A stretch of DNA of 37,167 nt from Vicinamibacteria bacterium (lineage in GTDB: Bacteria; Acidobacteriota; Vicinamibacteria; Fen-336). The notes beneath the pieces are model-generated. The model saw only the letters and a program-made list of their open reading frames with translations. It was not told the DNA's origin and made no database searches. The number at the start of each line of letters is the position of its first letter. Positions within the stretch are counted from its first letter, which is position 1. Positions 17,155 through 31,229 of this stretch are shown here, piece by piece. The stretch is from the NCBI GenBank assembly GCA_025923995.1, contig JAICEW010000018.1, positions 1-37,167 of the forward strand. The letters are read 5' to 3'. A program made the position numbers and the translations under genes.

Positions 17155-17585
17155 CGTTCGCTCCCACCCGGGAACACCTCGGACCGCGCGACCGGTGTCC
17201 CTGCTCGCGCCGCCGGGTCCTGGTCCCTGGACGCCGCGTCCGCGTGCGCGATCAGGTGCGATCCCATCGGCGTGGCCAGTTCGGGCACGCGCGTATAGGT
17301 CGCGTCCTGGCCACGCACCCACGCACGCGTCCGATGGTCCGCGACGAACACGGCCGCGTGCTGCGGCGCTCGTCCCGCCTTCAGGTAGCCGGCCAGACAG
17401 CCCAGGTCGTCGAAGAACCGGGGCACCTCGCCCGGGGCCACGATCTGCGCGGCGAAGCGTGCTTCCGACACCGCCATGCGGCAGGCGGCGCAAGCCTCCT
17501 GGCGCGTGTCGAGCGGTGCCGGCTCGAGCGCCCCGCCCGCGCAGCCGGCCAGCACGATCAGGAGCGCCAGGGTCGCCCCTCTCAT
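17151..17585 (-). CDS. nosL: NosL, copper-chaperone lipoprotein for N2O reductase
   Basis: The lipobox LLIVLAGC is followed by the NosL-like motif EACAACRM...AAQIV...RFFDDLGC. AGGAG lies 7 nt upstream of the ATG. The ATG overlaps the nosF stop, and the nosL stop overlaps the nosY ATG. Confidence 0.75.
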   Translation of the reverse strand: MRGATLALLIVLAGCAGGALEPAPLDTRQEACAACRMAVSEARFAAQIVAPGEVPRFFDDLGCLAGYLKAGRAPQHAAVFVADHRTRAWVRGQDATYTRVPELATPMGSHLIAHADAASRDQDPAARAGTPVARSEVFPGGSER

Positions 17586-18496
17586 GCGTGCGCTCCTGGC
17601 GGCGCGTCCGCGACCAGCTCGCGGTACAGCGCGTCGAGCCGTCCGTCCTCCGCCGTCAGCCCGCGCACCTCGACGCCCAGCGCGCGCACGGCCTCGAGAA
17701 CGCGCGGGCGGATCCCGGCCGGGCCGGGCACGACCAGCTCCTCGCCGGCCCAGGTGGCGGCCGGCGCGACCGCCCTCACCGCGACGAGCAGGCCCGCGGG
17801 GTTCGCGGCCAGTCGGAGGCGCATGACTCCGCGCTCGGACAGGCGGTCCTTCAGCTCCGTCGCGGTCAGGCGGGCCGCCAGCCGCCCGCCCACCAGCACC
17901 GCGAACCGATCGGCGAGCCGCTCGACGTCGCCCAGGTGGTGCGAGGTGAAGAGGACGGCACGGCCGTCGTGGCGCGCCCGTTCCACGATGCCGTAGAACG
18001 CGCACAGGCCGTCCGGGTCGAGGGCCGCCGTGGGCTCGTCGAGCAGGAAGACGGGCGCCTCCGCCAGCAGCGCGACCGCGAGGCCCAGGCGCTGGACCAT
18101 GCCTCCCGAGTAGGTGCCGACGGCGCGACCGCCGGCGCCGTTGAGGGAGGCGAAGCGGAGCACCTTCGTCACGCGGTCGGCCGGCGCACCGCGGAGCTTG
18201 CGGTAGAACTCGACCACCTCCGCTCCCGTGAGCGCCTCGGGGAAAGAGACCTTCTGGGGCAGGAACGAGAGCACCTCGCGCGCGGCCGCGTCCGCGGCGG
18301 GGCGGGGCGGGTCGCCGAGCAGGACGTCGCCCGAGGTCGGCCGGATGAGACCGGCGGCGGCCTTGAGCGTCGTCGTCTTGCCCGAGCCGTTGGGCCCGAG
18401 CAGTGCCACGACCTCGCCGCGCGCCACCTCCATCGAGAGGCCGTCGACGGCCAGCTGGCCGCCGAAGCGCTTCGTGAACGCGCGGTAGCGGATCAT
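17582..18496 (-). CDS. nosF: NosF, ABC transporter ATP-binding protein
   Basis: It has Walker A GPNGSGKTT, the signature YSGGMVQR and Walker B LLDEPT. The ATG overlaps the nosD stop by 4 nt. Confidence 0.85.
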   Translation of the reverse strand: MIRYRAFTKRFGGQLAVDGLSMEVARGEVVALLGPNGSGKTTTLKAAAGLIRPTSGDVLLGDPPRPAADAAAREVLSFLPQKVSFPEALTGAEVVEFYRKLRGAPADRVTKVLRFASLNGAGGRAVGTYSGGMVQRLGLAVALLAEAPVFLLDEPTAALDPDGLCAFYGIVERARHDGRAVLFTSHHLGDVERLADRFAVLVGGRLAARLTATELKDRLSERGVMRLRLAANPAGLLVAVRAVAPAATWAGEELVVPGPAGIRPRVLEAVRALGVEVRGLTAEDGRLDALYRELVADAPPGAHA

Positions 18497-19872
18497 CGCG
18501 CCCCGACTCGCATCGTCAGCGCGCCGAGGAGGGTCAGCGCGGCGGAGGCCACGAGGCCGATCGGGCTCGCGCGTCCCTCCCGCGGGCGGCTCGTCGGTAC
18601 GCGCGCCATCAGCGGCGGGCGGGCCAGCGGCTCGGGATCCTCGACCGGCACCGCGCGCAGGACGGGGAACGCGCGCTCGGCGGCGCCGATCGCGGCGGCC
18701 GCGAAGCTGTCGGCGAGCAGGTCGGCCGCGGTGAGGTTGCCGCGGAAGTGGTCGAAGACGCTCGTCAGCACGTACGGGCGGTCGCTGCGGCCGTCGCCGT
18801 CCAGGTCGGGCTCGTCGTTGCCGGACCAGTAGTTGCCGCGGAAGACGGTGTCCGTCCGGCGCGCGACCAGCTCGAGAGGGGACCGGTTGCCGACGAAGAC
18901 GTTGCCCTCGAAGCGATGGCCGCCCGCCGGGTCGTACAGGATGACCGCCACGTCCGACCCCGCGACCGCGTTGCCCTTGAGCGTGATGCGATGCGACCCC
19001 TCGATGAAGACACCGCGGGCGTTGTCGGCCACGAGGTTGTCCTCGGCCAGCACGTCGTCGCAGGTCTGGAAGAGCAGGCCGACCGACGCGAAGCCGCGGT
19101 TGCGCACGAAGCGGTTGCGCCGGAACACGATGCGCTTCGAGTACATGATGGCGGTGCCGGCCGCGCCGTTCTCGAACGTGTTGTCCTCGAACACGTTGTC
19201 GTCCGAGAACATGTAGTGCAGGCCGTAGCGCACGTCGCGCGCGGTGTTCCGCCGCAGCACGCCCCTGGAGGCGTTCTGGAGGTACAGGCCGTCGCGGACG
19301 TCCACGATCTCGTTGTCCTCGAACCGGAAGCCCTCGAGGTTGTAGGCGTGGATGCCGGATCCCTTCTCGCCGGCTTCCCTCCCGGGGATCCCGCGGATGC
19401 GGCACCGTTCGACCACCGCGCCGCTCGCCTCGCGCAGGTAGACGCCGAAGATGGCCTCCCGGATGTCGAGGTCGCGCAGCGTCGTGTCGCGCGCGGACGT
19501 GTGCACGCCGGCCGAGTCGAGCGAGAGGTCGCCCCCGCGGCGGCCGTCGATCGCGAACCCCTCGACGGTCACGCCATCGGTGCGGATGCGCACGACGCTG
19601 CCGCGTCCCGACCCCAGCAGGAGGGGCCGGCCGCGGCCGACGAGGCGCAGCGGCTTGTCGATGACGAGGTCGCCCGCGTACTCGCCTGCGGGGACCTCGA
19701 CCGTCGCGCCAGTCCCGGCGGCATCGACGAGCGGCTGGAGCGCGGAGACGTCGGCCGCGGCAGGCCTTCCTTCCTGCGCGGCCGGCGCGACCGCGGCCAT
19801 CTGGTCGGCCCTCGCGGACGCCGCGAGCAGGCACAGGGCGGCGGCGAGCGCCGCGCGCGGGACGTGGGTCAC
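18493..19872 (-). CDS. nosD: NosD, periplasmic right-handed parallel beta-helix copper-binding protein
   Basis: The signal peptide is followed by repeated NosD/parallel-beta-helix repeats (GIHAYNLEGFRFEDNEI..., GLYLQNASRGVLRRN...). GTG start lies 1 nt after the nosB-like gene stop. Confidence 0.9.
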   Translation of the reverse strand: MTHVPRAALAAALCLLAASARADQMAAVAPAAQEGRPAAADVSALQPLVDAAGTGATVEVPAGEYAGDLVIDKPLRLVGRGRPLLLGSGRGSVVRIRTDGVTVEGFAIDGRRGGDLSLDSAGVHTSARDTTLRDLDIREAIFGVYLREASGAVVERCRIRGIPGREAGEKGSGIHAYNLEGFRFEDNEIVDVRDGLYLQNASRGVLRRNTARDVRYGLHYMFSDDNVFEDNTFENGAAGTAIMYSKRIVFRRNRFVRNRGFASVGLLFQTCDDVLAEDNLVADNARGVFIEGSHRITLKGNAVAGSDVAVILYDPAGGHRFEGNVFVGNRSPLELVARRTDTVFRGNYWSGNDEPDLDGDGRSDRPYVLTSVFDHFRGNLTAADLLADSFAAAAIGAAERAFPVLRAVPVEDPEPLARPPLMARVPTSRPREGRASPIGLVASAALTLLGALTMRVGAR

Positions 19873-19873: not shown

Positions 19874-20500
19874 TCAGGCCTCGCGGCGCCATTGGCGCCA
19901 GGCCATCGCCAGGGCGAGAAGGACGAGCACCGCCGCCGCGCCGAGCGCGTACGAGCCGAGCTGGGGATACGAGTAGACCTCGAAGTTGGCGAGCTTCTTG
20001 TACCCGAACAGCGGCGGCATGAACGGGTCCACGCGCACCGCCGCCTTGGGGTCGAGCTGGTGGCCGTACTGGTACATCTTGTAGGCGAAGGACCACAGCG
20101 CGAACAGGGAGAAGTAGAAGTACAGGACCGCCACGTCGACCAGGTGCGACGCCTTGCCCATCACCGCGGCCCTCAGGAACAGCAGCCCGATGATCCCGAT
20201 CACGAAGGGGAGCCACTTGAACTCGGTGAAGTCCTCCGTCACGAGGTCCTTCATCCCGATGTAGTGGTTGAGGACGTTGATCTCCTTCACGTCCTGGTTG
20301 TCGTTGCCCCCCTGGAGCTTGTAGCTGTAGATGTCGAGGCGCAGGCCGTCCTGGTACTGCGGCGCGAACATCGTCATGTTGTAGAGCGGCGCCACGTAGG
20401 CCGGCGCCAGGCACAGGAAGGCGAGCGCCAGCAGCACCCGCGGCGCCACGTCCAGGGGCGCGTCCAGGAAACGGTTCACCTTTTCGAGCGACCGGCGCAC
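19874..20500 (-). CDS. nosB: NosB-like integral membrane protein (clade II nos clusters)
   Basis: The 208-aa protein has several predicted TM helices. It lies immediately downstream of nosZ, as in clade II clusters. GTG start is preceded by GGAGGTG 4 nt upstream. Confidence 0.6.
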   Translation of the reverse strand: MRRSLEKVNRFLDAPLDVAPRVLLALAFLCLAPAYVAPLYNMTMFAPQYQDGLRLDIYSYKLQGGNDNQDVKEINVLNHYIGMKDLVTEDFTEFKWLPFVIGIIGLLFLRAAVMGKASHLVDVAVLYFYFSLFALWSFAYKMYQYGHQLDPKAAVRVDPFMPPLFGYKKLANFEVYSYPQLGSYALGAAAVLVLLALAMAWRQWRREA

Positions 20501-20525
20501 ATGTCACCTCCGGCGGGCAACGAAT

Positions 20526-20545
20526 GGGGTGCGACGCCGCACCCC
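20526..20545 (-). other. Hairpin GGGGTGCG-ACGC-CGCACCCC in the nosZ-nosB spacer
   Basis: The perfect 8-bp stem was read from the sequence. No U-run follows it. Confidence 0.45.
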
Positions 20546-20602
20546 GGCCCGAACCACGGACACGCGGCGAAGCGGGATCCACTCCCGCGAGCCGCGGGGG
20601 GG

Positions 20603-20632
20603 TCTGGGGGGTGCGGCGCAGCACCCCCCAGA
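20603..20632 (-). other. Hairpin TCTGGGGGGTGC-GGCGCA-GCACCCCCCAGA beginning 1 nt after the nosZ stop codon
   Basis: The perfect 12-bp stem was read from the sequence. It may be an intra-operon attenuator or mRNA-stabilising structure. Confidence 0.5.
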
Positions 20633-20633
20633 C

Positions 20634-22490
20634 TCAACGGACGATCAGGTAGCCCTGCATCTCCTGATGCAGCGCCGAGCAGAAGTTCGTGCAGTAGTAG
20701 GGGAAGACGCCCTTCTTCTTCGCCTTGAAGGTGACGGTCTTCGTCTCGCCCGGGTCCACGACGATGTTGATGTTGTAGTCGAGCAGCCCGAAGCCGTGCA
20801 GCTCGTCGGTGGTCTGCTCGATGTTGGTGATGGCGACCGTGACGTCGTCGCCTTCCTTGATCTCGAAGTCCGTGGGCGTGATGGTCGACCGCACCGTGAT
20901 CATCTTCACCAGCACCTTGCTGCCGGTGCGGGTGACGCCGGCGTCCTTCACGTCCCAGATGGCGTGGGGGTGCTTGTTCTCCTCCTTGGGGTACACCTCG
21001 ATGGGCTTGATCTTGTCCGCCTTGATGATCTGCGCGTAGTGCGGCTCGGGCTCGGTGAAGAAATCGAGCAGGAGCTTCATCTTCTCCTCGCTGATGTCCA
21101 CGAGCTGGGACGCCTCGGGCTGCGAGGGGCCGACCGACAGGTGCCGGCCGTGCGACAGCTTGTTGAGGCCGACCAGGTACTTCCCGTCGGGGCTCACGGT
21201 GTCGCCCTCGGCCGCGGTCAGGTGGCCGATGGAGTAGGACATCGGCACCTTGTCCACCACCTCCCAGCTCCCCAGCTTCCACTTGGCGATCGCGCTGTCC
21301 ACGAACAGCGAGGTGTAGGCGAAGCCGTCCGGACCGAACTGGGTGTGAAGCGGGCCGAGGCCGACCGGCACCTCGGCGTCCTTGATGGACTCGTACTTGA
21401 GGACGGGGATGCCGTCCTCGTCGCCGGAGAAGTCCTTGTTGCGCATCGCGGTCTGGACCTTCTCCCAGTTGAACGCGGTGGTGACGCCCTGCAGCTTGCC
21501 CGACCCGATGATGTACTTGCCGTCGGGCGCGACGTCGACGCCGTGCGGCGACTTGCCGCAGGGCATGAAGTACACGAGGCCGGGGTGCTTGGCGGGGTCG
21601 ATCACCTTCACGCCGCCGATCGCCTGCCCTTCGCCCTTCGCCGCCAGCTGCTCGGCCATCCTCCAGTCGACGGCGGCGATGTAGTCGCGGTCCTTCTGGG
21701 CGGAGGTGACCTCCAGCTTCCCGGTGGCGCGCTCGGTGTTGTACGAGGTGAAGAAGACCCAGCCGTCCGACACCTTCTTGCCGGCGTCGCCCAGGTCGTA
21801 GTCGAAGGGCGGCATCAGGATCTGCCACCCGATCGACATCGCGCCCGTGTTGGGGTCGATCTTGATCCCCGTCACGACGCCCTTGTAGTCGCTCGCGTAC
21901 TTCGCGACCTCGACCGCGGTGCCCTTGGGGATGGGGATCGAGAAGCGCGAGGCCATCACCGAGTACTCGGTGTTGGGCGTGACGAAGGCCGAGCCGTGGT
22001 TCCCCGACACGTTCGGCACGGGGCCGATGATCTGCTTCGTCTTGAAGTCGCGCAGGTCCACGCGGGCGACGCGGCCGTTCATCTCGTTCACGAACATCCA
22101 GCGGCCGTCGTAGTCCCCGTTCGTCTCCGACAGCGCGGGGTGGTGCACGTCGCCCCAGGTGAGGTCGCCCAGCATCGCCTTCGACTCGTCGTCGAAGCCG
22201 TAGCCGGTGGCCGGGTAGGGCGTGAAGACGGGGATGGTCGAGATGTGCCGGCCCGAGGGCAGGCCGTACACGTACATCTGGCCGGAGTGGCCGCCGGACG
22301 CGAACAGGTAGTACTCGTCGAGGTCGCCGGGGGCCACGTAGACCTTCATGGCCGCGTTGGCCACGTCGGACACGACGGCGCCCTTCTTGGAGCCCTTGGG
22401 AGCGCTGGGGGCGCAACGCGCCTGCAGGAGCCCGGCCGCGGCGATCCCGGCCAGCGTCGCGAGGACGGTGCCGGCACGTCTCGTCTTCAT
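20634..22490 (-). CDS. nosZ: Nitrous-oxide reductase NosZ, clade II (Sec-dependent) type
   Basis: It has the C-terminal CuA motif CTNFCSALHQEMQGY and the seven-bladed propeller CuZ-domain His pattern. The Sec-type signal (MKTRRAGTVLATLAGIAAAGLLQA) is not Tat. GAAGGAGG lies 5 nt upstream of the ATG at 22490. Confidence 0.95.
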   Translation of the reverse strand: MKTRRAGTVLATLAGIAAAGLLQARCAPSAPKGSKKGAVVSDVANAAMKVYVAPGDLDEYYLFASGGHSGQMYVYGLPSGRHISTIPVFTPYPATGYGFDDESKAMLGDLTWGDVHHPALSETNGDYDGRWMFVNEMNGRVARVDLRDFKTKQIIGPVPNVSGNHGSAFVTPNTEYSVMASRFSIPIPKGTAVEVAKYASDYKGVVTGIKIDPNTGAMSIGWQILMPPFDYDLGDAGKKVSDGWVFFTSYNTERATGKLEVTSAQKDRDYIAAVDWRMAEQLAAKGEGQAIGGVKVIDPAKHPGLVYFMPCGKSPHGVDVAPDGKYIIGSGKLQGVTTAFNWEKVQTAMRNKDFSGDEDGIPVLKYESIKDAEVPVGLGPLHTQFGPDGFAYTSLFVDSAIAKWKLGSWEVVDKVPMSYSIGHLTAAEGDTVSPDGKYLVGLNKLSHGRHLSVGPSQPEASQLVDISEEKMKLLLDFFTEPEPHYAQIIKADKIKPIEVYPKEENKHPHAIWDVKDAGVTRTGSKVLVKMITVRSTITPTDFEIKEGDDVTVAITNIEQTTDELHGFGLLDYNINIVVDPGETKTVTFKAKKKGVFPYYCTNFCSALHQEMQGYLIVR

Positions 22491-22512
22491 GATTGCCTCC
22501 TTCAAGGCGTCG

Positions 22513-23763
22513 CTACCTCTGCCGGCTCTCGATCACCTGGCCGGGGTTCTTCTGCGGCTCGCTGGCCGCGATCCTCTGGTGCTCGGCGAACGCCTCGCGC
22601 AGCCGGGCGACCGCCGCCGCCTTCTCCTCCGGGGTGAGCACGATCTGGCGCGAGAGCACGACCTGCATGGTCCCGGTCGGCTTGTCGAGGAAGTCGTCCA
22701 GCGTGCGGCCGAAGCGGGTCTGGACGTCCTCGACGGCGGTGGAGAGGTCCGGGCCGATCTGCGCCGGGCTCTTCACCCCGTACACGGACACCGAGTGGCA
22801 CACGAAGCAGCCGGTCTTGACGAACCACGCGCCCGGCCCCTCGCGCATGCGCTTGTCCTGCTCCTTCTCCTCGACGGTCTGCGGATCGGTGCGCGGCACG
22901 CCCGGCACCAGCGAGGCAGGCACCGGCGCCTTGCGCCAGGACTGCACGAGCATCGCCAGGGCCTGCGCGTCCTTCGTGGTGAAGTGGAAGTTCGGCATCA
23001 CCGTGTCCTGGACGAGCGCGCGGGGATCCTTGAAGTGCGCGACGTGCCACGCGAAGCTCGACTTCTGGCCCGAAAGGCGCCCGTATTCGTACTGCTCCGC
23101 GGGTTTGTCGCCCGCGTTCGTGAGGTCGGGCCCGATGGTCCCGCCCCGCCCGTTGATCACGTGGCAGGCGCGGCAGCCCTTGTCCTGCACGAGCCGCTTG
23201 GCGTGGTTGATGAACTCGGCGCCCTTCGTCTCCCGGTCGTAGCGATGGCAGACGTTGCAGTTGGACTGCATGAGCGCGCCCTTGTCCTCGACGATCGAGT
23301 AGGCCTCGCCCATTGCCCTGCCGAGCAGCGGCTCCTCCCAGAAGTGCACGGGCCCGTGGGCGGGCTCCATGTCCACGGCGTAGCCCTGCCCGCCGTGGCA
23401 GGAGGTGCAGCCGTGGACCTCGGGCGGATGGGTGCGCAGGATCTCCTGCGGGTGGGTCTTGAAGGGATGCTCCGCGGACTCGAACCCCTTCCAGTTGGTC
23501 GCCTGGTGGCACGTGACGCAGCGGTCGGCGCGGCCCATCGACGAGACCCAGATCTGCTGCATCCCGGAGGGGACCGTCCTGGCCTTGTCGGCCCCGTACT
23601 TCTCGGCGACGAGCCGCTTGAACTCGGCCTGGTACCAGCGCCATTCGTGCTCGCGGTCGTTGCGGAGGAACAGCACGGTCGCGGCCACGAGCAGGAGTCC
23701 GATGACGGCCAGGACCGGCCGGTCCAGCCGCGGGTAGGGCGAGTCGGTGCGCTTCTCCGTCAT
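22513..23763 (-). CDS. Membrane-anchored pentaheme c-type cytochrome
   Basis: It has five CxxCH motifs (CVTCH, CTSCH, CNVCH, CRACH, CFVCH) and an N-terminal TM helix. GAGAGG lies 6 nt upstream of the ATG. Confidence 0.85.
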   Translation of the reverse strand: MTEKRTDSPYPRLDRPVLAVIGLLLVAATVLFLRNDREHEWRWYQAEFKRLVAEKYGADKARTVPSGMQQIWVSSMGRADRCVTCHQATNWKGFESAEHPFKTHPQEILRTHPPEVHGCTSCHGGQGYAVDMEPAHGPVHFWEEPLLGRAMGEAYSIVEDKGALMQSNCNVCHRYDRETKGAEFINHAKRLVQDKGCRACHVINGRGGTIGPDLTNAGDKPAEQYEYGRLSGQKSSFAWHVAHFKDPRALVQDTVMPNFHFTTKDAQALAMLVQSWRKAPVPASLVPGVPRTDPQTVEEKEQDKRMREGPGAWFVKTGCFVCHSVSVYGVKSPAQIGPDLSTAVEDVQTRFGRTLDDFLDKPTGTMQVVLSRQIVLTPEEKAAAVARLREAFAEHQRIAASEPQKNPGQVIESRQR

Positions 23764-23776
23764 TTCTCGCCTCTCA

Positions 23777-25126
23777 TCAGATCCTCGTGGGCAGCTCGGG
23801 CCAGGCCTGCCAGGGCCAGAAGAACTGCCAGGACGGGCCGCGCATGAAGGTGCCGACGATCGTGAGCGCCACCACGACGAGCACGATCAGGAGGAAGACG
23901 AGGTTCTGCCGGCGCCGGCTGCCGTGGAACCAGACGCCCGCGGCCTCGCCGCGCGAGCGGTCGATCCAGGGCCAGGCGGCCAGCAGCCCGACGAGGAGGC
24001 CGGGCAGGATCACGCCGCCCAGGAAGGCGCCGTTGACGGTGAAGCCGCCCACCGTGAACGTGGTGTCCGTCACGATCTCCTGCAGCCAGAGGAAGTACCA
24101 GGGCGCCTTGGCCGGGTTCGGGGTGACCAGCGGGTTCGCCGGCTCCTCCAGCGGCGAGCGCACGAGCGACGCCAGGACGCTGATCACCGCGAAGGTGCCC
24201 AGCACCGCGACCGCGGCGCGCCGCACGAGGTCGGGGACCGCGTTCACGGTCAGGTCGCGCGCTTCCAGGGTGGACGTGCGGATGGTGGGCGCGGTGCCGC
24301 GCGCGACGCCCAGCAGCGTGTAGGTCTTGCTGCGCACGGGCTCGTCGGCCGCCTTCTCGCGGGCGGTCGCCACGCGGTCCGCCCTGGCCAGCCCGCCGTC
24401 CTTGCGCACCCGCCACATGTGGTACGCGAACAGCGCGCCCAGCGCGGCGGGGAGGAAGATCACGTGCAGCGCGTAGAAGCGGATCAGCGTGGGCTGGTCG
24501 ATGTTGCGGCCGCCGATCATCAGCTCCCGCACCTGCGGGCCGATCCAGGGGATGGAGGCGGCGATGTTGGTGCCGACCGTCACCGCCCAGTAGGCGAGCT
24601 GGTCCCAGGGCAGCAGGTAGCCGGTGAACGAGAGGAAGAGCGTCAGCAGGAGCATGGCCACGCCGATCACCCAGTTCCACTCGCGCTGCTGGCCGCGCCC
24701 CGCGCCGTTCTTGTAGGCGCCGGTCAGGAACACGCGGACGAGGTGCAGGAAGACGGCGGCGACCATCAGGTGCGCGGACAGGCGGTGGACCGAGCGGATC
24801 CAGGAGCCGAAGGTCACCACCCACTCGATGTCCTTGACCGACCCGTAGGCCCGCTCGACCGAGGGCACGTAGAGGAAGAGCAGCGGCAGGCCCGAGACCA
24901 CGAGCAGCAGGAGGAGCGCGGCGCTGATGGTCCCGAGCCAGTACGAGTAGGTCCAGTCGAGCGACGGCTTGAACACCTTGGCCGGGAACCAGTGCAGGAG
25001 GAAGTTGGAGACGACGGCGTCGCCTGCCTCCCGGTCGGATCGCGGCCGCAGGCTCCACAGCCGCTTCGGGTGCACGCCCGGCGCGGCGGGCGCCGCCGGG
25101 GTCGCCGGTTTCGCGAGAGTGGCCAT
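23777..25126 (-). CDS. Cytochrome b (bc-complex type, fused b6/subunit-IV-like)
   Basis: It carries conserved cytochrome b helices with heme-ligating His (VHRLSAH..LHLVRVFLTGAY; YALHVIFLPAALGALFAYHMW). GAGGAGGAGGAG lies upstream of the ATG. Confidence 0.9.
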   Translation of the reverse strand: MATLAKPATPAAPAAPGVHPKRLWSLRPRSDREAGDAVVSNFLLHWFPAKVFKPSLDWTYSYWLGTISAALLLLLVVSGLPLLFLYVPSVERAYGSVKDIEWVVTFGSWIRSVHRLSAHLMVAAVFLHLVRVFLTGAYKNGAGRGQQREWNWVIGVAMLLLTLFLSFTGYLLPWDQLAYWAVTVGTNIAASIPWIGPQVRELMIGGRNIDQPTLIRFYALHVIFLPAALGALFAYHMWRVRKDGGLARADRVATAREKAADEPVRSKTYTLLGVARGTAPTIRTSTLEARDLTVNAVPDLVRRAAVAVLGTFAVISVLASLVRSPLEEPANPLVTPNPAKAPWYFLWLQEIVTDTTFTVGGFTVNGAFLGGVILPGLLVGLLAAWPWIDRSRGEAAGVWFHGSRRRQNLVFLLIVLVVVALTIVGTFMRGPSWQFFWPWQAWPELPTRI

Positions 25127-25138
25127 CGCTCCTCCTCC

Positions 25139-25648
25139 TCAGGCCGTGGTGAGACGGAAGTCGCGGCCGACCTCCTGCGCGAGGTCGACCACGAGCTGGC
25201 CGTCGTCGGGGGAGACGCTCAGGTGGAACCACAAGAGCGGCCGCGGAGCCGGTCCGGACACGACCTTGCCGTCCCCGGTGTACTTCGAGCCGTGGCAGGG
25301 ACACGCGAAGCGATGCGTCACGCGCAGCTGCGCGCCGCCGACCTCCACCGTCTCGGGCTGGGGCAGCGCCTCCGCGCGGACGGTGCAGCCGAGGTGGGTG
25401 CACACGGCGGACACCGCGTGGAACACCTTGCCCTCGCGGAACACGAACAGCCGCTGCTCGGGCAGGAACTTCATCCCGTCCGGGAAGTCGGCCGGCAGCC
25501 CGACCTTGACGGTGGTGGGCGCGTCGTAGGACACGTTGGGCAGCAGCGAGCGCAGCGAGGCCGCGGCCTGGGTGCCGATGCCGACGCCGCCCGCGCCGAT
25601 GCCGAGCTTCACGAGGAAGTCCCGGCGGTTCTTCTGCTCTCGGCTCAT
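25139..25648 (-). CDS. Rieske [2Fe-2S] protein with Tat signal
   Basis: The Tat motif is NRRDFLVKLGIGA. The Rieske boxes are CTHLGC and CPCHGS. The ATG overlaps the upstream gene's stop (ATGA). Confidence 0.9.
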   Translation of the reverse strand: MSREQKNRRDFLVKLGIGAGGVGIGTQAAASLRSLLPNVSYDAPTTVKVGLPADFPDGMKFLPEQRLFVFREGKVFHAVSAVCTHLGCTVRAEALPQPETVEVGGAQLRVTHRFACPCHGSKYTGDGKVVSGPAPRPLLWFHLSVSPDDGQLVVDLAQEVGRDFRLTTA

Positions 25649-27582
25649 GCGGTCTCCTGGGAAGGCGCGGCCGGCGCCGGGCGCTCCTGGATCTGGAAGC
25701 GCTCCATGGTCATCGCGTCGGTGGGGCAGCGGACGGCGCAGAGGCCGCACCGGATGCAGCGGTCGTCGTCCTTGATCATCGCGGACAGCGGCAGGCCGTG
25801 CGCCTGCGCGCGCTCCGTGAGCTCGGCGCGCTCCGCCTCCGGCAGGTCGAGCGACTCGAAGGGAACGATGGCCAGGCAGTACTCGGGGCACACGTCCACG
25901 CAGCGGCTGCAGAGCACGCACTTCTCGGGGTCGTAGATGGTCTGCACGTGGCAGACCAGGCAGCGCGCAGCCTGCCGGATGGCGGCGGCCGGGTCGTAGC
26001 CGGTCTCGACCTCCGCGATCCCGGTGCGCCGGCCGAGGTCGAGCGTGGGCGGCGTCTCGCGGTCGAGGATCTCGAAGCCCGCGAGCATCCGGTAGTCGCG
26101 GGTCGGGATCTTCTCGACGTCCAGCGTGACCTCGATCGCGCTCCGGTCCCCGGCCAGCAGCTCGTGGATGGAGCGCGCGGCGAGCTTGCCGTTCGCGACC
26201 GCCTCGATGAGGTTCCGGGGGCCGAACGCGGCGTCGCCGCCGGCGAAGACACCCGCGGCGGAGGTGGCCAGCGTCCGGGGATCGACGCGGATCGTCCCCG
26301 CGGGCGTCGTGTCGACGCCGTCCTGCGGCGTGAGGAAGTCGAGGTCGGCCTTCTGCCCGATGGCCAGCACGCACGCGTCGGCGTCCAGCGCGATCACGTC
26401 CTCGTCGTCGTAGGCGGGGCTGAAGCGGCCGTTCTCGTCGAACACGGACCGCACCGCGCGCAGCTCGACCTGGCGCAGCCGGCCGTCGCCCAGGAAGCGC
26501 CGGGGGCCGCGGCGGGGCAGGAACGCGACTCCTTCCCGCCGTGCCTCCTCGTACTCGTCGTGCCCCTGCGTCGACTGCAGCACGGGCATCTCGGCGAAGC
26601 TCTCCAGGGAGACGATCGTCACCTCGGTGGCCCCGCCGCGCAGGGCCGCGCGCGCCGAGTCGAACGCCTCCTTCATCCGGGCGTCGCTCTCTCCGGCGAG
26701 CTCCTCCGCTTCCTCCTCGCGGCCCAGGCGCAGCGCGGTGCGCGCCGCGTCGAAGGCCACGAAGCCGCCGCCGATGACCACCACGCGGCGCCCGAGGTTC
26801 ATCCGGTAGCCGCGGTTGACGTTCAGGAGGTAGTCGACCGCCTTCACCACGCCGTCCAGCTCGACGCCGGGCACCTGCAGGTCGCGGCCGCGCGAGACGC
26901 CGACGGAGAGGAAGACGGAGCGGAAGCCCTGCGCGCGCAGCTGCGCGAGGCCGAAACCGGGCGTGAGCGCGACGCCCGAGCGCAGCGTGACGCCCAGCGC
27001 GAGGATCTTCTGGATCTCCTCGTGGATGAGCGTCCGCGGGAGCCGGTACTCGGGGATGCCGAAGCGCATCATCCCCCCCGGCTCCGACGCCGCGTCGAAG
27101 ACCGTGACGTCGTAGCCGAGCAGGGCGAGGTCGTGGGCCGCGGACAGGCCCGCCGGCCCCGCGCCCACCACCGCGACCTTGGCCCGCTCGGCGGGGGCCG
27201 GCCCGCCGAAGGGGACGACGGGAAGGTGGCCGCGGTAGACGTTGCCTTCGAGCAGCGGCGCCTGGCGGAGGCGGTCCTGCGTGTCGGGCCGGCGCGACTC
27301 GACGCCGTACTGCTCGGTGACGTAGCGCTTCAGCGCGCGGATGGAGATGGGGGCGTCGATGTTCCCGCGCCGGCAGGCGTCCTCGCAGGGTGCGGCGCAG
27401 ACGCGCCCGCAGACCGAGGCGAACGGGTTGGGCGCGCGCGCGACGAGGTAGGCCTCCTCGTTCCGTCCCTCGGCGATCAGCTGGACGTAGCGGCCGGCGT
27501 CGGTGCGGACGGGACAGCCCGACTGGCACTTGACCTGCGCCTTCCAGTGCTCGAGATCGGGAAGCTGTACGCGCACGGGCAT
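25645..27582 (-). CDS. GltD-like FAD/NAD(P)-binding oxidoreductase with N-terminal Cys-cluster and C-terminal 2x[4Fe-4S] ferredoxin domain; first gene of the nos operon
   Basis: It has two Rossmann motifs (VAVVGAGPAGLSAA; RRVVVIGGGFVAFDAA). The N-terminus carries a GltD-type Cys cluster, and the C-terminus has CLVCH, CVLCSRCVDVCP and CIRCGLCAVRCP. No signal peptide is present. ATG at 27582 is preceded by GAGAGGTG; a GTG at 27591 is an alternative start. Confidence 0.75.
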   Translation of the reverse strand: MPVRVQLPDLEHWKAQVKCQSGCPVRTDAGRYVQLIAEGRNEEAYLVARAPNPFASVCGRVCAAPCEDACRRGNIDAPISIRALKRYVTEQYGVESRRPDTQDRLRQAPLLEGNVYRGHLPVVPFGGPAPAERAKVAVVGAGPAGLSAAHDLALLGYDVTVFDAASEPGGMMRFGIPEYRLPRTLIHEEIQKILALGVTLRSGVALTPGFGLAQLRAQGFRSVFLSVGVSRGRDLQVPGVELDGVVKAVDYLLNVNRGYRMNLGRRVVVIGGGFVAFDAARTALRLGREEEAEELAGESDARMKEAFDSARAALRGGATEVTIVSLESFAEMPVLQSTQGHDEYEEARREGVAFLPRRGPRRFLGDGRLRQVELRAVRSVFDENGRFSPAYDDEDVIALDADACVLAIGQKADLDFLTPQDGVDTTPAGTIRVDPRTLATSAAGVFAGGDAAFGPRNLIEAVANGKLAARSIHELLAGDRSAIEVTLDVEKIPTRDYRMLAGFEILDRETPPTLDLGRRTGIAEVETGYDPAAAIRQAARCLVCHVQTIYDPEKCVLCSRCVDVCPEYCLAIVPFESLDLPEAERAELTERAQAHGLPLSAMIKDDDRCIRCGLCAVRCPTDAMTMERFQIQERPAPAAPSQETA

Positions 27583-27633: not shown

Positions 27634-27647
27634 ATGACCGTCGTCAT
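27634..27647. promoter_or_regulatory. Fnr/Dnr-type box ATGACCGTCGTCAT, ~58 bp upstream of the nos-operon first gene (minus strand)
   Basis: It has perfect ATGAC/GTCAT half-sites with an N4 spacer. Confidence 0.55.
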
Positions 27648-27698: not shown

Positions 27699-27712
27699 CT
27701 GACGGCCGTCAT
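27699..27712. promoter_or_regulatory. Fnr/Dnr-type box cTGACGGCCGTCAt, centred 55.5 bp upstream of the hemerythrin gene start (27761)
   Basis: The 12-bp perfect palindrome is TGACGGCCGTCA. Together with the box at 27634..27647 it forms a divergent promoter pair. Confidence 0.55.
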
Positions 27713-27760: not shown

Positions 27761-28366
27761 GTGCAGATAGCGATCGAAGTCCTGATGAACGAGCACCGCC
27801 TGATCGAGCAGGCGCTGGGGTCCCTCGAGACGTACGCCGTCGAGGTCCGGGCCGGGCTGGCGCCGGCCCGGCAGATCGTCGGCGAGTACGCCTCGTTCTT
27901 CCGCGGCTTCGCGGACGGCTGCCACCACGGCAAGGAGGAGGACGTGCTGTTCCAGCGCCTGCTGGAGCGGGGCTTCCCGCGCCAGTCGGGGCCGCTGGCG
28001 GTGATGTACCACGAGCACGAGCTCGGACGCGCTCACGTCGGCGCCCTGTCCGGGATCGCAGAGCGGCCGGGCTCGGTCCAGACGCCGGAGGTCGAGGCGC
28101 TGCTCGCCAGTGCCGACGCCTTCGTGCCCCTCCTCCGCCAGCACATCCTCAAGGAGGACCGCATCCTCTACCCGATGGCGCTCGACGTGCTGAGCGGTCC
28201 GGAGCTCGACGCGATGAACACGCAGTTCGAGGAGTTCGAGGCGACGATGCGCGTGGACGGCACCTACGACGCCCTGCAGGCGCTGGCGGAGCGCCTGATC
28301 GTCCGTTTCCGCCCGGACCCGGTCCGCATGGCCGCGGTCTCGCAGATGGCCCACTGCGGCCGATGA
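27761..28366 (+). CDS. Hemerythrin-like (HHE cation-binding) domain protein
   Basis: GGAAGGAGG lies 6 nt upstream of the GTG. It has repeated H..HH / HE / H...KED metal-ligand spacing (NEHRLIE, GCHHGKEED, YHEHELGRAH, QHILKEDR). Confidence 0.8.
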   Translation: MQIAIEVLMNEHRLIEQALGSLETYAVEVRAGLAPARQIVGEYASFFRGFADGCHHGKEEDVLFQRLLERGFPRQSGPLAVMYHEHELGRAHVGALSGIAERPGSVQTPEVEALLASADAFVPLLRQHILKEDRILYPMALDVLSGPELDAMNTQFEEFEATMRVDGTYDALQALAERLIVRFRPDPVRMAAVSQMAHCGR

Positions 28367-29427
28367 CCCTGGTCGCCCGGCCCCTCCGGGCGCGCGAGCT
28401 GCGCGCCCGCAGCCGGGGGATCCGGTGGCTGAGGCACCTGGTCCAGGCAGGCGCCGCGGTCCTGGTCCTGTGGATCGGATGGGACTTCGTACTGTGGGTC
28501 CGCGGCCTGGAGTCCGGACAGATGACAGCCCAGCGCCCGCCCGGCGTCGAGGGCTTCCTCCCGATCGCCGCGCTCATGAGCCTGCGCCACCTGTGGAGCG
28601 CCGCCGAGGTCCATCCGGTGCACCCCGCGGGCCTCGTGATCCTGCTGGCGATCGTCGGCACCGGCCTCGTGCTCAAGAAGGCGTTCTGCTCGTGGCTGTG
28701 CCCGGTGGGGACGATCGCGGAGATGCTGGCCTCGGTCGGCCTCACGGCCTTCGCCCGGCGCGTCCGGCTGCCGAGGGCGCTGGACCTGCCGCTGCGCGGG
28801 GTGAAGTACCTGCTGCTGCTCTTCTTCGTCCACGCCATCTTCGTCGCCCTGTCCCCCAGCGCGATCGCCGCCTTCCTGGACGCGCCCTACAACCGGGTGG
28901 CGGACGTGAAGATGCTGTACTTCTTCGAGCGGCTCTCGCCGTTCGCGCTCAAGGTCCTCGCGTTCCTGGTCGTGCTGTCGATGGTCGTTCCCTTCGCCTG
29001 GTGCCGCTACCTCTGCCCGTATGGTGCCCTGCTGGGGGCGCTGTCCCTGCTCTCGCCGCTCAAGGTCACGCGCCACGCGCCGTCGTGCATCGACTGCGGC
29101 CTGTGCACGAAGGCCTGCCCATCGCTCCTGCCCGTCCATCGCCTCGGGCGCGTCCGTTCGGACGAGTGCTCCGCGTGCCTGTCGTGCGTGGCGGCGTGCC
29201 CCGTCCCGCGCGCGTTGCGCGTGGAGACGCCCCGGCCGTGGCGGCGCGCGGTCCGGCCCGCCGCCTTCGCGTGTCTCGTCCTGCTGCTGTTCGGCGGCAC
29301 CATCCAGGCCGCCCGGGTCTGGGGCGTGTGGCGGAACGCCATCACAGACGCGGAGTACGCCGAGCGCCTGCGGGAGATCGACTCCTACGACCACCTGCGC
29401 GGCGGCGAGCCGTCCGGGGGATCGTAG
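28363..29427 (+). CDS. NapH/NosR(C-terminal)-like membrane polyferredoxin (4Fe-4S binding)
   Basis: TM helices alternate with CSWLCPVG and CRYLCPYG motifs, then two ferredoxin motifs CIDCGLCTKACP and CSACLSCVAACP. The ATG overlaps the hemerythrin stop (ATGA). It has no FMN-binding N-terminal domain. Confidence 0.8.
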   Translation: MTLVARPLRARELRARSRGIRWLRHLVQAGAAVLVLWIGWDFVLWVRGLESGQMTAQRPPGVEGFLPIAALMSLRHLWSAAEVHPVHPAGLVILLAIVGTGLVLKKAFCSWLCPVGTIAEMLASVGLTAFARRVRLPRALDLPLRGVKYLLLLFFVHAIFVALSPSAIAAFLDAPYNRVADVKMLYFFERLSPFALKVLAFLVVLSMVVPFAWCRYLCPYGALLGALSLLSPLKVTRHAPSCIDCGLCTKACPSLLPVHRLGRVRSDECSACLSCVAACPVPRALRVETPRPWRRAVRPAAFACLVLLLFGGTIQAARVWGVWRNAITDAEYAERLREIDSYDHLRGGEPSGGS

Positions 29428-30464
29428 GCGCACAGCGGGTCCTCGGCGAACGCGTCGCCGGTCGCCGCGAAGGCGCGGGAACGGGATCCACCGCAGACCG
29501 CGCGCAGCTCGCAGCGGCCGCAGCGGCCGCCCAGCGCGTCGGGGTCGCGCAGGCGCCTGAAGACCGGGTCGTCGCGGTAGGTCTGGACCAGCCGTCCCTC
29601 GCGCGCGTTGCCGCGCGCCATGGGAAGGAACCCGCTCGGGCAGACGTTCCCGACGTGGTCCACGAAGGCGAACCCGTTGCCGTCGTTGACCGCGCGGGGC
29701 GCGCGCAGCTGCCGGCGGCCGAGGCTGGTCGTGGTGGCGCCCGCGCGCTCGCTGGCCATCTGGATCCGGCGATAGTGGGGCGCCTCGGTCGTCTTGATCC
29801 CGAAGGGGACCCGGCGCGAGAGGTCGTCCAGGAAGCGCAGCACGTCCTCGCACTCGTGGGGCGTGATCTGCTCGAGGCTCGCGCCTCGGCCCGTCTGCAC
29901 CAGGAAGAACGCGGCCCACAGCGTGAGCGGGAACGTCGCCACCCGCTCCGCCAGCTCGGGCAGGTGCGGGAGCGTCAGGCGGCTCACGGTCGAGTTGACC
30001 TGGAGCGGCAGCCCGAGACCGATCACCGCATCGATGATCTTCATCGTGTTCGCGTACGAGCCCTTCACGCGCCGGAACGCGTCGTGGCTCTCGGGGTCCG
30101 GGCCGTCGAGGCTCACCGCGACGCGCGAGAGGCCGGCCGCCTTCAGCTCCTCGAGCCGGGCGCGCGTCGCCATCGCGGTGCCGCTGGGGGTGAGCGCGAC
30201 CGTGAGCCCGATCCGCGTCGCATGGCCCACCAGCTCCGCCAGGTCCTTGCGCCACATCGGGTCGCCGCCGGTGAGGACGAGCAGGGGAGGCGGCGTCCCG
30301 AACGCGCGGATCTGATCGAGCAGGTGGAAGCCTTCCTCCGTGCCGAGCTCGCGCGGGTCCCGGCGGGCGATGGCGTCGGCGCGGCAGTGCACGCAGCTGA
30401 GCGCGCAGGCGCGCGTCACCTCCCAGATGACCAGGAAGGGCGTCCGGTCGAAGTCGACGACCAT
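29385..30464 (-). CDS. Radical SAM protein with partial SPASM/twitch C-terminal Cys motif (NirJ/AhbD/PqqE-like subfamily)
   Basis: It has the CxxxCxxC cluster in IWEVTRACALSCVHCRA and C-terminal CGRCELRAVCGG plus further Cys. There is no Shine-Dalgarno sequence. The Fnr-type box is centred exactly 41.5 bp upstream of the ATG. Confidence 0.8.
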   Translation of the reverse strand: MVVDFDRTPFLVIWEVTRACALSCVHCRADAIARRDPRELGTEEGFHLLDQIRAFGTPPPLLVLTGGDPMWRKDLAELVGHATRIGLTVALTPSGTAMATRARLEELKAAGLSRVAVSLDGPDPESHDAFRRVKGSYANTMKIIDAVIGLGLPLQVNSTVSRLTLPHLPELAERVATFPLTLWAAFFLVQTGRGASLEQITPHECEDVLRFLDDLSRRVPFGIKTTEAPHYRRIQMASERAGATTTSLGRRQLRAPRAVNDGNGFAFVDHVGNVCPSGFLPMARGNAREGRLVQTYRDDPVFRRLRDPDALGGRCGRCELRAVCGGSRSRAFAATGDAFAEDPLCAYDPPDGSPPRRWS

Positions 30465-30498
30465 GGCCGATGGTCGGACGATCCGCGCTCCCGGCCCA

Positions 30499-30512
30499 TG
30501 ACGGCCGTCATA
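30499..30512. promoter_or_regulatory. Fnr/Dnr-type box ATGACGGCCGTCAT between the divergent radical-SAM and methyltransferase genes
   Basis: It is a perfect 14-bp palindrome. Its centre is 41.5 bp from the rSAM ATG and 40.5 bp from the methyltransferase ATG at 30546. Confidence 0.6.
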
Positions 30513-30545
30513 CGCACGGGAGGCGGGGCGGCGCGATGATGGAGC

Positions 30546-31229
30546 ATGGACCCACTGGCCGGCTCGTCCTGGAGCGCGCCCGCGACGGTGGCCGGCTTCG
30601 CTCGCTCGTCGCCGAACGAGGTGCTGATGCGCTTCGCCCAGGATCACCTGGGCCGCATCGGCGGCGGGCGGCTGCTGGATCTCGGGTGCGGCGCCGGCCG
30701 CAACGCCGTGCCGCTCGCGCGCGAGGGCTGGGAGGTCCTGGGAACGGATCTGTCGTGGCCCATGCTGCGCGCCGCAAAGCGCCGCGTCGAGGACGAGGGC
30801 CTCGGGCGCCGCCTCCGGCTCGCCCTGGCGCCCATGGACCTCGTGCCGGCCGCGGACCGCGGCTTCGACGTCGTGGTCGCTCACGGGATCTGGAACCTCG
30901 CGCGTTCTTCCGCGGAGTTCCGGCGCGCCGTGGCGGAGGCGGCTCGCGTGGCGCGCAGAGGGGCCCGCCTCTTCGTGTTCACGTTCTCCCGCCACACGCT
31001 TCCGCCCGAGGCGGAGCCCGTCGCCGGCGAGCCGTTCGTCTTCACGGACTTCTCGGGCGAGCCCCAGTGCTTCCTCAGCGCGGAGCAGCTCGCGGCGGAG
31101 CTCGGCCAGGCCGGCTTCGTCCCGGACCCGGAGGTTCCGCTGACCGAGTACAACCGCCCCGCGCCGGGTCTCACGCGCGTGGGCGGGCCGCCGGTCATCT
31201 ACGAAGCGCTGTTCCGCCGCTCCGACTGA
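30546..31229 (+). CDS. Class I SAM-dependent methyltransferase
   Basis: Motif I is LLDLGCGAGRNAVPLA, and an acidic motif II and post-I region are present. The start is uncertain: ATG 30546 has a weak RBS, while ATG 30627 (MRFAQ...) has GAGG 5 nt upstream. Confidence 0.7.
   Translation: MDPLAGSSWSAPATVAGFARSSPNEVLMRFAQDHLGRIGGGRLLDLGCGAGRNAVPLAREGWEVLGTDLSWPMLRAAKRRVEDEGLGRRLRLALAPMDLVPAADRGFDVVVAHGIWNLARSSAEFRRAVAEAARVARRGARLFVFTFSRHTLPPEAEPVAGEPFVFTDFSGEPQCFLSAEQLAAELGQAGFVPDPEVPLTEYNRPAPGLTRVGGPPVIYEALFRRSD

Follow-up and report, generated by a model that had tools for sequence, protein, structure and literature searches.

Kuenenia stuttgartiensis possesses two Rieske/cytochrome b complexes, encoded by Kuste4569-4574 and Kustd1480-1485, with Kuste4570 and Kustd1483 as their putative NAD(P) oxidoreductase subunits (PMC12954380). 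Previously, these anammox complexes have been studied by Kartal 2013 and de Almeida 2016, and a quinol bifurcation yielding NAD(P)H has been proposed for them by Kartal and colleagues, in each case as cited in PMC12954380; according to PMC5600118, a different role was proposed by de Almeida and colleagues. Hauser et al. give +303 and +335 mV for the two Kuenenia Rieske proteins, and it has been argued for this organism that a high Rieske potential combined with menaquinone would leave the b haems at very low potential, making NAD(P)+ reduction feasible (PMC12954380). Besides, Dibrova et al. 2017 have pointed to large, cysteine-rich proteins that bind NAD(P) and are found together with some cytochromes b "in many other cases" (PMC5600118). 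The present study deals with a protein of this kind at the head of an operon for nitrous oxide (N2O) reduction. The operon lies in a 37,167-nucleotide stretch of DNA (contig JAICEW010000018.1 of a Vicinamibacteria bacterium; hereafter the window). Its first gene encodes an NAD(P)-type flavo-iron-sulfur protein (the flavoprotein below), followed by the genes of a Rieske protein, a cytochrome b, a cytochrome c and a clade II NosZ.

Clade II nos clusters have been drawn with Rieske (S), cy-b, cy-c and "Fe-S" genes since Sanford et al. 2012 (as presented in PMC11096178, PMC11237620 and PMC13122619). The locus studied here agrees with these drawings in a NosZ assigned by family model to the Sec type, in nosB directly 3' of nosZ, in nosDFYL, and in the Rieske, cytochrome b and cytochrome c genes directly 5' of nosZ. 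In the figure legends of those papers, however, the remaining gene is labelled as an "iron-sulfur protein" without analysis. Our literature search, outside which Sanford et al. 2012 itself lay, found no paper linking the nos "Fe-S" gene to an NAD(P) flavoprotein, to bifurcation or to anammox-type complexes. In the clade II system of Wolinella succinogenes, NosGH, NosC1C2, NosB and a housekeeping Rieske/cytochrome bc complex take part (Hein et al. 2017, as presented in PMC11409646). There too a clade II NosZ is fed from menaquinol through a Rieske/cytochrome b-type complex. In contrast to the window, where the complex is a dedicated one, the Wolinella bc complex is general and encoded elsewhere; its NosZ has a haem c domain of its own, which the window NosZ lacks; and a NapGH-like NosGH module is present in Wolinella, with no NAD-linked subunit involved. 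A sequence-only reading of the window had taken the electron-input route into the complex in front of NosZ as biochemically undescribed. The class of complex, however, is known from phylogenomics (PMC5600118) and from the Kuenenia work (PMC12954380). What we describe is not a categorically new system; its variant features are a fused cytochrome b, the lack of a haem cN cysteine and a pentahaem cytochrome c, and its new partner is NosZ.

The evidence that carries this view is the company kept by the flavoprotein gene. A flavoprotein scan of 185,579 species-representative genomes gave 180 relatives, and the best 80 were kept. All 80 come from metagenome-assembled genomes (MAGs) of Acidobacteriota (Vicinamibacteria, Thermoanaerobaculia, Holophagales and Terriglobia) and share 69-89% identity. 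As far as the contigs reach, the order flavoprotein, Rieske, cytochrome b, cytochrome c, NosZ, NosB, NosD was found by tblastn in 80/80 loci. The spacing between the flavoprotein and Rieske genes in these related loci has a median of -1 nt and is ≤60 nt in 97%. The sequence-only reading had named the lack of the flavoprotein gene in orthologous loci as a finding that would speak against it; the gene is kept in every one of the 80.

More distant homologues were collected by an exhaustive search of 50%-identity representatives (3,215 matches below 1e-30) and by two profile searches. Thirteen distant genomic contexts of 38-64% identity, representing at least five other phyla, were inspected; their sources are Desulfomonilaceae, Planctomycetota, Terriglobia, Ignavibacteriota, Thermincola and marine samples. 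The flavoprotein gene adjoins a Rieske gene in 13/13 of them, and also a cytochrome b gene in all 12 whose contig extends far enough. Taken with the 80 acidobacterial loci, the flavoprotein-Rieske adjacency holds in 93/93 contexts. What follows the module varies. It is nosZ in a Desulfomonilaceae MAG (L081) and two metagenome contigs (L085 and L091), a NarG/NarH-like pair in a Planctomycetota MAG (L082, 8001-17899), and large multihaem cytochromes in Terriglobia and Ignavibacteriota (L089 and L090). In a Thermincola MAG (L092, 7001-15809) the module is followed by a type II enzyme of the dimethyl sulfoxide (DMSO) reductase family, an EB_dh haem subunit and a NarJ-like chaperone. No terminal enzyme was found after the module in L083, L084 and L087, and the contig of L088 stops just past the Rieske gene. 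In a marine contig (L086, 3440-13452) the genes for the flavoprotein, b6, subunit IV, Rieske and a dihaem cytochrome c are followed by nuoA,B,C,D,H,I,J,K. No nuoEFG was found between nuoD and nuoH in this contig, and a functional link of the module to a complex I devoid of its NADH module is a possibility.

The flavoprotein is the constant companion of one Rieske/cytochrome b class, with nosZ as one partner among several, and the module is a portable front end for different periplasmic reductases. The oddity specific to nos clusters that had been suspected in the flavoprotein gene is thereby replaced by a fixed subunit of a widespread class, which occurs with other terminal enzymes or with none. 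The flavoprotein, the cytochrome b and the Rieske protein give roughly congruent neighbour-joining trees, in which the nos-linked modules with fused cytochrome b cluster together; these trees carry no bootstrap and are indicative. Very probably, the Rieske/cytochrome b complex has the flavoprotein as a subunit or as a functional partner. Among the distant nos-linked contigs, L085 (1-7000; 54% identity) bears, on the upstream flank of the module, genes for Phage_rep_O, DnaB, a phage-type integrase, an rve transposase and a MerR protein. This setting hints that the whole flavoprotein-Rieske-b-c-nosZ cluster may be able to travel on a mobile element. A 6.5-Mb contig of Desulfomonile tiedjei, of the size of a complete isolate genome, contains a flavoprotein homologue (P0423) 85% identical to the nos-linked Desulfomonilaceae protein.

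The flavoprotein gene occupies positions 25645-27582 on the minus strand and encodes 645 amino acids, one fewer than the 646 given previously. Pfam recognizes Fer4_20 (residues 17-91), Pyr_redox_2 (135-465) and two Fer4 domains (549-626). In a search of PDB sequences, the FAD/NAD(P)H/2x[4Fe-4S] module known from NfnB, GltD and dihydropyrimidine dehydrogenase was recognized over residues ~15-480, and polyferredoxin domains such as that of FwdF (5t5i) over residues ~548-633. The top match is 9bov_A (also 9bp5), the NfnABC of Caldicellulosiruptor, at E = 1.9e-74; further matches are 9n5u, 5jca_L, 4ylf_B, GltD and FwdF 5t5i. The AlphaFold2 monomer reached a pLDDT of 68.6 and a pTM of 0.72, with the Fe-S regions below 50. 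A Foldseek search with this model placed 9n5u_A, 9bov_A and 8oh5_C first, followed by NfnI, Xfn, NfnB, GltD and dihydropyrimidine dehydrogenase. A sequence scan found no hydrophobic segment, membrane helix or signal peptide, in agreement with the sequence-only reading on the latter. The protein is predicted to be cytoplasmic and to bind FAD and NAD(H), as a Kuste4570-like N-side subunit of the Rieske/cytochrome b complex.

Motif conservation was assessed in an alignment of 20 diverse family members. Cysteines 19, 23, 62, 66, 70, 541, 544, 555, 558, 561, 565, 609, 612, 615 and 619 are invariant, and cysteines 58 and 569 nearly so. The conserved cysteines thus number seventeen, enough for four [4Fe-4S] clusters. 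The domains named in the sequence-only reading, GltD-like Fe-S clusters and a 2x[4Fe-4S] ferredoxin domain, are indeed present; their layout has to be amended, as there are four cysteine sets and an RCLxC motif (residues 540-544, with R540, C541 and C544 invariant) has moved behind the flavin domain in all family members aligned. RCLxC is N-terminal in GltD and NfnB, where it opens the Fe-S domain. Furthermore, the Pfam Fer4_20 match begins at profile position 30, leaving the first 29 positions uncovered. These observations suggest a permuted, circular-permutation-like arrangement of the first Fe-S site. Of the 20 members, 18 retain the two dinucleotide-binding motifs, the second Rossmann motif being degenerate in P0139 and P0182. 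The second beta-alpha-beta unit ends in V-x-L-E-S, with L326 and E327 invariant, versus Y-R-R in the NADPH-binding 9bov. In Rossmann folds, sites for NAD(H), rather than NADP(H), typically have an acidic residue here. The motif suggests that the flavoprotein is specific for NADH rather than NADPH.

The flavoprotein stays below the cut-off of every NCBIfam model; the best is PRK12771 (389 versus 516 bits), and the GltD models TIGR01317 and TIGR01318 score 166-178 bits against cut-offs of 448-483. No GltB, NfnA, PreA or FdhA partner gene was found in the window. Since its scores are below these cut-offs and no GltB, NfnA or PreA neighbour accompanies it, the flavoprotein is not a member of the GltD, NfnB or PreT families. 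It shares its fold and cofactor motifs over residues ~15-480 with NfnB, NfnA of NfnABC, StnC, GltD and the N-terminal module of dihydropyrimidine dehydrogenase. In contrast to them, its partner gene is that of a membrane cytochrome b rather than NfnA, GltB or PreA, a C-terminal FwdF-type 2x[4Fe-4S] domain is added, RCLxC is relocated, and "LES" replaces the "YRR" motif that holds the NADPH phosphate in NfnB. A 1069-residue homologue (P0124) was tried as a natural fusion and set aside; its N-terminal 436 residues gave only a TPR match, and it is probably a gene-call artefact.

The Rieske [2Fe-2S] protein (25139-25648, minus strand, 169 residues) has a Tat-like N-terminus (NRRDFLVK) and the boxes CTHLGC and CPCHGSKY. 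Two structures of Kuenenia Rieske proteins, 9rk3 (Kustd1480) and 9rk4 (Kuste4569), are described in PMC12954380. Both stand within the top three PDB matches of the window Rieske at E ~2e-17, compared with ~1e-12 for PetC of the b6f complex. A Ser and Tyr pair (CPCHGSxY), which is associated with a high potential, is present in 77/86 Rieske sequences of the fetched loci, and Ser and Phe in most of the others. The cytochrome b (23777-25126, minus strand, 449 residues) matches Cytochrome_B and Cytochrom_B_C of Pfam, a b6-like four-helix part being fused to a subunit-IV-like three-helix part. It has seven predicted membrane helices and zero cysteines. Its four haem-ligand histidines are spaced i+14 in helix B and i+15, as in b6, in helix D. 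Among PDB entries, cyanobacterial b6 matches best (1e-38), its YCLGG facing YWLGT in the alignment; covalent binding of haem cN is impossible, because YWLGT stands for YCLGG and no cysteine is available. Close to the N-side site, this cytochrome b has retained the Arg of the b6-type "RKxG" motif. Where a PEWY-type Qo motif is expected, the protein reads APWY (…NPAKAPWYFLWLQE…), a variant of PEWY. The nearest NCBIfam models are ExtP (242 bits, cut-off 290) and ExtQ (74 bits, cut-off 150). The two halves of this cytochrome b thus score best against subunits of Geobacter ExtMNOPQS; in contrast to that system, the scores are below the cut-offs and the linkage is to nos rather than to selenite/tellurite reduction genes.

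The cytochrome c (22513-23763, minus strand, 416 residues, Pfam Cytochrom_C) contains a single membrane helix, at the N-terminus, and exactly five CxxCH motifs, as the sequence-only reading had counted. It is predicted to serve as an electron wire from the Rieske subunit to NosZ. NosZ itself (20634-22490, minus strand, 618 residues) scores 898 bits with TIGR04246, the Sec-dependent clade II model (cut-off 625), and 451 bits with the Tat-type TIGR04244, so the earlier assignment to clade II holds. Pfam finds nos_propeller and cupredoxin domains, and there is no CxxCH, hence no haem c domain. Its N-terminus, MKTRRAGTVLATLAGIAAAGLLQA, has RR without the S/T-R-R-x-F-L-K consensus. With NCBIfam and Pfam, no nosR or nosX was found in the cluster; there is no match of NosR length, only a NapH-like gene upstream on the other strand.

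The window module and the Kuenenia complexes have much in common. Each is a Rieske/cytochrome b operon with a cytoplasmic FAD/NAD(P)-binding subunit of about four Fe-S clusters, and the flavoproteins, compared through their nearest solved structures, share 9bp5/9bov NfnABC and 5t5i FwdF. Their Rieske proteins are closely related and carry the Ser/Tyr(Phe) pair, and box II of the window protein (CPCHGSKY) reads as in Kuste4569. A multihaem cytochrome c replaces cytochrome f/c1 in both, and both are linked to a high-potential nitrogen-oxide reductase. The two also differ. The window cytochrome b is a fused, seven-helix protein without cysteine, in contrast to the split b6 (with haem cN) and subunit IV of Kuenenia, and its subunit-IV part has three helices versus five, the latter holding, in the Kuenenia models, an extra b haem that bridges to the Fe-S chain. 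With five haems, the cytochrome c departs from the hexa- or octahaem forms of Kuenenia; the operon opens with the flavoprotein gene, NosZ (N2O) stands where Kuenenia has an HAO-like octahaem protein, and the host is a soil acidobacterium without an anammoxosome. On these comparisons, the window complex is a variant of the Kuenenia-type complex and not an orthologous copy.

We propose that the four genes ahead of nosZ encode one anammox-type membrane complex. A Rieske/cytochrome b core would lie in the membrane, with the pentahaem cytochrome c on the periplasmic side and the FAD/NAD(H) subunit, bearing four [4Fe-4S] clusters, docked on the cytoplasmic face. A Crp/Fnr-type operator upstream of the flavoprotein gene would switch the operon on. 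Menaquinol would be oxidized at the Qo site, the first electron passing through the Rieske centre and the five c haems to CuA of NosZ and on to N2O, and the second through haem bL, haem bH, the Fe-S chain and FAD to NAD+. The resulting NADH could be re-oxidized by complex I, which would raise the proton yield of N2O respiration. The N2O/N2 couple has an E0' of ~+1.35 V and menaquinol one of ~-70 mV. The direction of the high-potential branch is fixed because NosZ only accepts electrons; for the low-potential branch through the b haems, Fe-S clusters and FAD, sequence alone is compatible with either direction, and the one given here, like the assembly of the subunits, is a proposal. Bifurcation is favored because it is the best-supported reading for the homologous Kuenenia proteins, because a high-potential Rieske signature is found in presumed menaquinone users, and because the partners of the module are periplasmic high-potential reductases. 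It is favored also because the energy gap between menaquinol and N2O would otherwise be lost at the periplasmic, non-pumping NosZ, part of which NADH and complex I would recover. To the full proposal, i.e., quinol bifurcation to N2O and NAD+ with the direction of electron flow included, we assign a probability of about 45%.

Several considerations weigh against this proposal. Menaquinone is the presumed quinone of Vicinamibacteria, and the assembly of the subunits is deduced by comparing genes. The AlphaFold2 model of the flavoprotein is moderate and poor exactly in the Fe-S regions. The path from haem bH to the first cluster is only putative, since the cytochrome b has no haem cN cysteine and its subunit-IV part is of three helices. 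The Ser/Tyr statistic covers the Rieske proteins of the fetched loci and not the housekeeping Rieske proteins of the same organisms, which weakens the argument from the Rieske signature. The argument from the partners is weak too, as all bc-type complexes serve high-potential acceptors. Why a heterotroph should make NADH from quinol is not obvious, which is a further point against bifurcation. Furthermore, bifurcation is itself still a hypothesis in anammox bacteria, for which another role has been suggested by de Almeida and colleagues, as presented in PMC5600118.

The anatomy of the complex is equally compatible with the opposite direction, in which NAD(P)H is the donor and electrons run from the flavoprotein through the four Fe-S clusters to the b haems. 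They would then either reduce quinone at a Qi-type site, so that the complex runs an NADH-primed Q cycle or contains its own NADH:quinone reductase, or be exported directly across the membrane, and the outcome would be a self-contained NADH:N2O oxidoreductase chain bypassing complex I. The V-x-L-E-S motif, which suggests the catabolic carrier NADH, fits this, as do the probable heterotrophy of these NADH-producing organisms, the retained Arg of the "RKxG" motif near the N-side site, and the marine contig L086, in which the module stands directly 5' of a nuo operon without nuoEFG and hints at a stand-in for NADH input. On the other hand, the 250 mV between NADH and menaquinone would be wasted or would call for a special conservation mechanism, direct export from the N to the P side would dissipate membrane potential, and a high-potential Rieske signature would be unnecessary. 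For Kuenenia, this direction was judged unlikely on the 250-mV loss and the high Rieske potentials (PMC12954380). For the window we consider it less likely than bifurcation, though a serious alternative. The sequence-only reading had favored an input of electrons from NAD(P)H or ferredoxin; the part that stands is that a cytoplasmic NAD(P)-type subunit belongs to the module, while the direction it assumed is opposite to that of the mechanism favored for anammox bacteria.

The cofactor motifs and the gene neighborhood bear on the other explanations. The degenerate second Rossmann motifs of P0139 and P0182 leave room for ferredoxin, flavodoxin or another partner in place of a pyridine nucleotide, or for a redox sensor or sink that protects the b haems from over-reduction. 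NfnB-type modules, too, pass electrons to ferredoxin through [4Fe-4S] clusters, as in NfnAB. Since both dinucleotide motifs are conserved in 18/20 members and all four clusters are needed to bridge flavin and membrane in the Kuenenia models (PMC12954380), we hold this to be improbable. Somewhat harder still to credit is a NosR-like maintenance function, in which occasional low-potential electrons delivered via the flavoprotein and b haems would keep the CuZ site of NosZ reduced and active while the bulk flows from quinol via Rieske and cytochrome c. NosR is missing from clade II clusters, this cluster has no nosR or nosX, the combination of flavin, [4Fe-4S] and membrane part resembles the domain logic of NosR, and the flavoprotein gene is co-regulated with nosZ; however, the four-gene module also accompanies NarGH-like or type II molybdoenzymes, or no terminal enzyme, and so is not specific for NosZ, and the stop/start overlap with the Rieske gene points to stoichiometric rather than accessory expression. 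Automatic annotations call the protein glutamate synthase beta-subunit-like or a formate dehydrogenase beta subunit, as expected of a standalone GltD, NfnB, SudA or PreT enzyme that merely adjoins the nos genes. We reject this, and consider it barely credible, on account of the sub-cut-off scores (best PRK12771), the lack of a GltB, NfnA, PreA or FdhA gene in the window, the Rieske linkage in all 93 contexts and the stop codon that overlaps the Rieske start. In this respect the sequence-only reading, which had counted a conventional standalone enzyme as evidence against itself, has come through the homology check.

Window G+C is ~71%, because of which mechanical lists of open reading frames (ORFs) are full of spurious frames; genes were therefore called from third-position G+C (GC3) and confirmed by translation and domain searches. 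For the window genes, the closest relatives come from MAGs labelled Vicinamibacteria or Acidobacteriota. The flavoprotein stop and the Rieske start share an ATGA, as had been read from the sequence before, and the remaining gaps down to nosZ are 12, 13 and 22 nt, each of the three gapped genes being preceded by a GGAGG-type ribosome-binding site. The tight five-gene operon described in the sequence-only reading is thus borne out, with its ATGA overlap and its gaps of 13 and 22 nt; its smallest gap is 12 nt and not 13. Downstream of nosZ, after a spacer (20501-20633, minus strand), lies a gene for a NosB-like four-helix membrane protein (19874-20500, minus strand, 208 residues), identified by its position after nosZ, its four predicted helices and its retention in related loci. 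The maturation genes nosD-nosF-nosL-nosY follow at 16324-19872 on the minus strand, with ATGA overlaps as joints: nosD (18493-19872; TIGR04247 NosD, 351 bits), nosF (17582-18496; Walker A motif), nosL (17151-17585; NosL Pfam match) and nosY (16324-17154; ABC-2 Pfam match). A missing or broken nosF, as the GC3 filter and tblastn with spurious alternate-frame ORFs had indicated, was rejected, since frame-by-frame translation gives an intact gene with Walker A. In the stretch 3' of nosY, Pfam identifies a fasciclin protein, a protein with an FGE-sulfatase domain and then a Crp/Fnr-family regulator (13897-14583, minus strand; cNMP_binding and HTH_Crp_2). The two genes between nosY and the regulator lie at 14601-16298 on the minus strand, and the FGE-sulfatase domain is an EgtB/SenA-like C-terminal domain.

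Upstream of the flavoprotein gene, the palindrome TGACCGTCGTCA (27635..27646), a candidate Crp/Fnr-type box, has its centre ~58 nt before the start codon. A second palindrome, TGACGGCCGTCA (27700..27711, found by an exact-motif scan), lies in the same divergent intergenic region, nearer to a hemerythrin gene. These are two of five exact TGAC-N4-GTCA sites in the window (7082-7093, 27635-27646, 27700-27711, 30499-30510 and 31617-31628), all of them intergenic, against 0.52 expected; 0/100 shuffles reached five. Two of the five fall in the 178-bp region between the flavoprotein gene and the divergent hemerythrin gene, and the sites at 27700, 30499 and 31617 are identical in sequence. An exact TGAC-N4-GTCA precedes the flavoprotein gene by ≤300 nt in 57/78 related loci; in most, its distance from the start codon is 47-73 nt. 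The density is 2.6 per kb upstream of this gene versus 0.077 per kb across the related loci. Since the spacer bases vary among related loci, the TGAC and GTCA half-sites appear to be under selection. Of 101 sites in the related loci, 63 are upstream of the flavoprotein gene, one is between the flavoprotein and Rieske genes and one between the cytochrome c gene and nosZ. This distribution and the short gaps, taken together, place the presumptive regulated promoter of the electron-transfer genes and nosZ before the flavoprotein gene.

A consensus scan found no sigma-70-like promoter and no coding-strand intrinsic terminator inside the operon, a scan that is weak and uninformative for an acidobacterium of 71% G+C. 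Neither a terminator nor a separate conserved operator splits the flavoprotein gene from the rest, in line with the co-transcription that the sequence-only reading had presumed. An FNR-type cysteine cluster is lacking in the Crp/Fnr regulator (13897-14583), whose FixK/Fnr matches are weak; this protein is a candidate binder of the TGAC-N4-GTCA boxes. The other genes preceded by boxes are a DUF6448 gene (7151-7768), the hemerythrin gene, a divergent radical-SAM/methyltransferase pair and a cupin gene. The five palindromes suggest a small regulon, possibly that of this regulator. Three unrelated lineages have a gene for an Rrf2-family regulator directly upstream of that for the flavoprotein (L089, 5309-5737; L090, 7521-7976; L091, 3446-3895), in place of the Crp/Fnr box of Vicinamibacteria-type loci.

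The spacer between nosZ and nosB, with its two G+C-rich stem-loops, is at 133 nt the longest gap of the operon, and in related loci, too, this gap is the longest (median 67 nt). Its predicted fold has -85.3 kcal/mol (z = -3.69 versus shuffles) and comprises a 13-bp perfect G+C stem right after the nosZ stop and a second hairpin, without a U tract. It may act as a partial terminator or as a mRNA-stabilizing element, setting different levels of the structural and maturation genes. Divergent from the nos operon are genes for the hemerythrin-domain protein (27761-28366, plus strand) and a NapH/NosH-like membrane polyferredoxin (Fer4_5; 28363-29427, plus strand). The hemerythrin gene is upstream in only ~4/80 related loci and the NapH-like gene in 2/80. 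Beyond them, a radical SAM/SPASM protein related to AhbD/NirJ (29385-30995, minus strand; TIGR04053, 449 bits) matches its model only from residue 180. This ORF was probably called from a start that is too far upstream; the antisense overlap of 450 nt that it thereby shows with a gene for a methyltransferase (30546-31229, plus strand) is probably unreal. One palindrome lies between the likely starts of these two genes.

NosZ is the sole biological sink known for N2O. A 2026 survey in the ISME Journal places acidobacterial clade II nosZ, especially that of Vicinamibacteria, among the most abundant soil nosZ groups worldwide, and N2O reduction has been demonstrated in Luteitalea pratensis, whose cluster was described with SCO and azurin genes and not with the module described here (PMC13122619). 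How electrons are supplied to clade II NosZ outside Campylobacterota is poorly known. All related genomes examined pair NosZ with a dedicated Rieske/cytochrome b complex that has an NAD-linked subunit. Whichever way the electrons run, N2O reduction would accordingly be tied to the NAD(H) pool, with consequences for energy yield, donor range and competitiveness. The range of the puzzling bc-complex class known from anammox bacteria grows by at least six phyla, and the high-potential terminal enzymes paired with it vary. Thus, our study connects two literatures that had not been joined, that on clade II N2O respiration and that on NAD-linked Rieske/cytochrome b complexes. Whether the dominant acidobacterial N2O reducers of soil, and some Desulfobacterota, run an N2O-driven quinol bifurcation can be answered in the affirmative only tentatively, and we lean against it more than for it. 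If true, bifurcation would explain mechanistically why higher growth yields have been reported for clade II N2O respirers, and the bifurcating Rieske/cytochrome b mechanism would gain an experimentally accessible test system with a gaseous, easily dosed acceptor. Should the genomic context of the flavoprotein homologue in Desulfomonile tiedjei match that of the Desulfomonilaceae MAG, this species would be a cultured organism for bifurcation tests.

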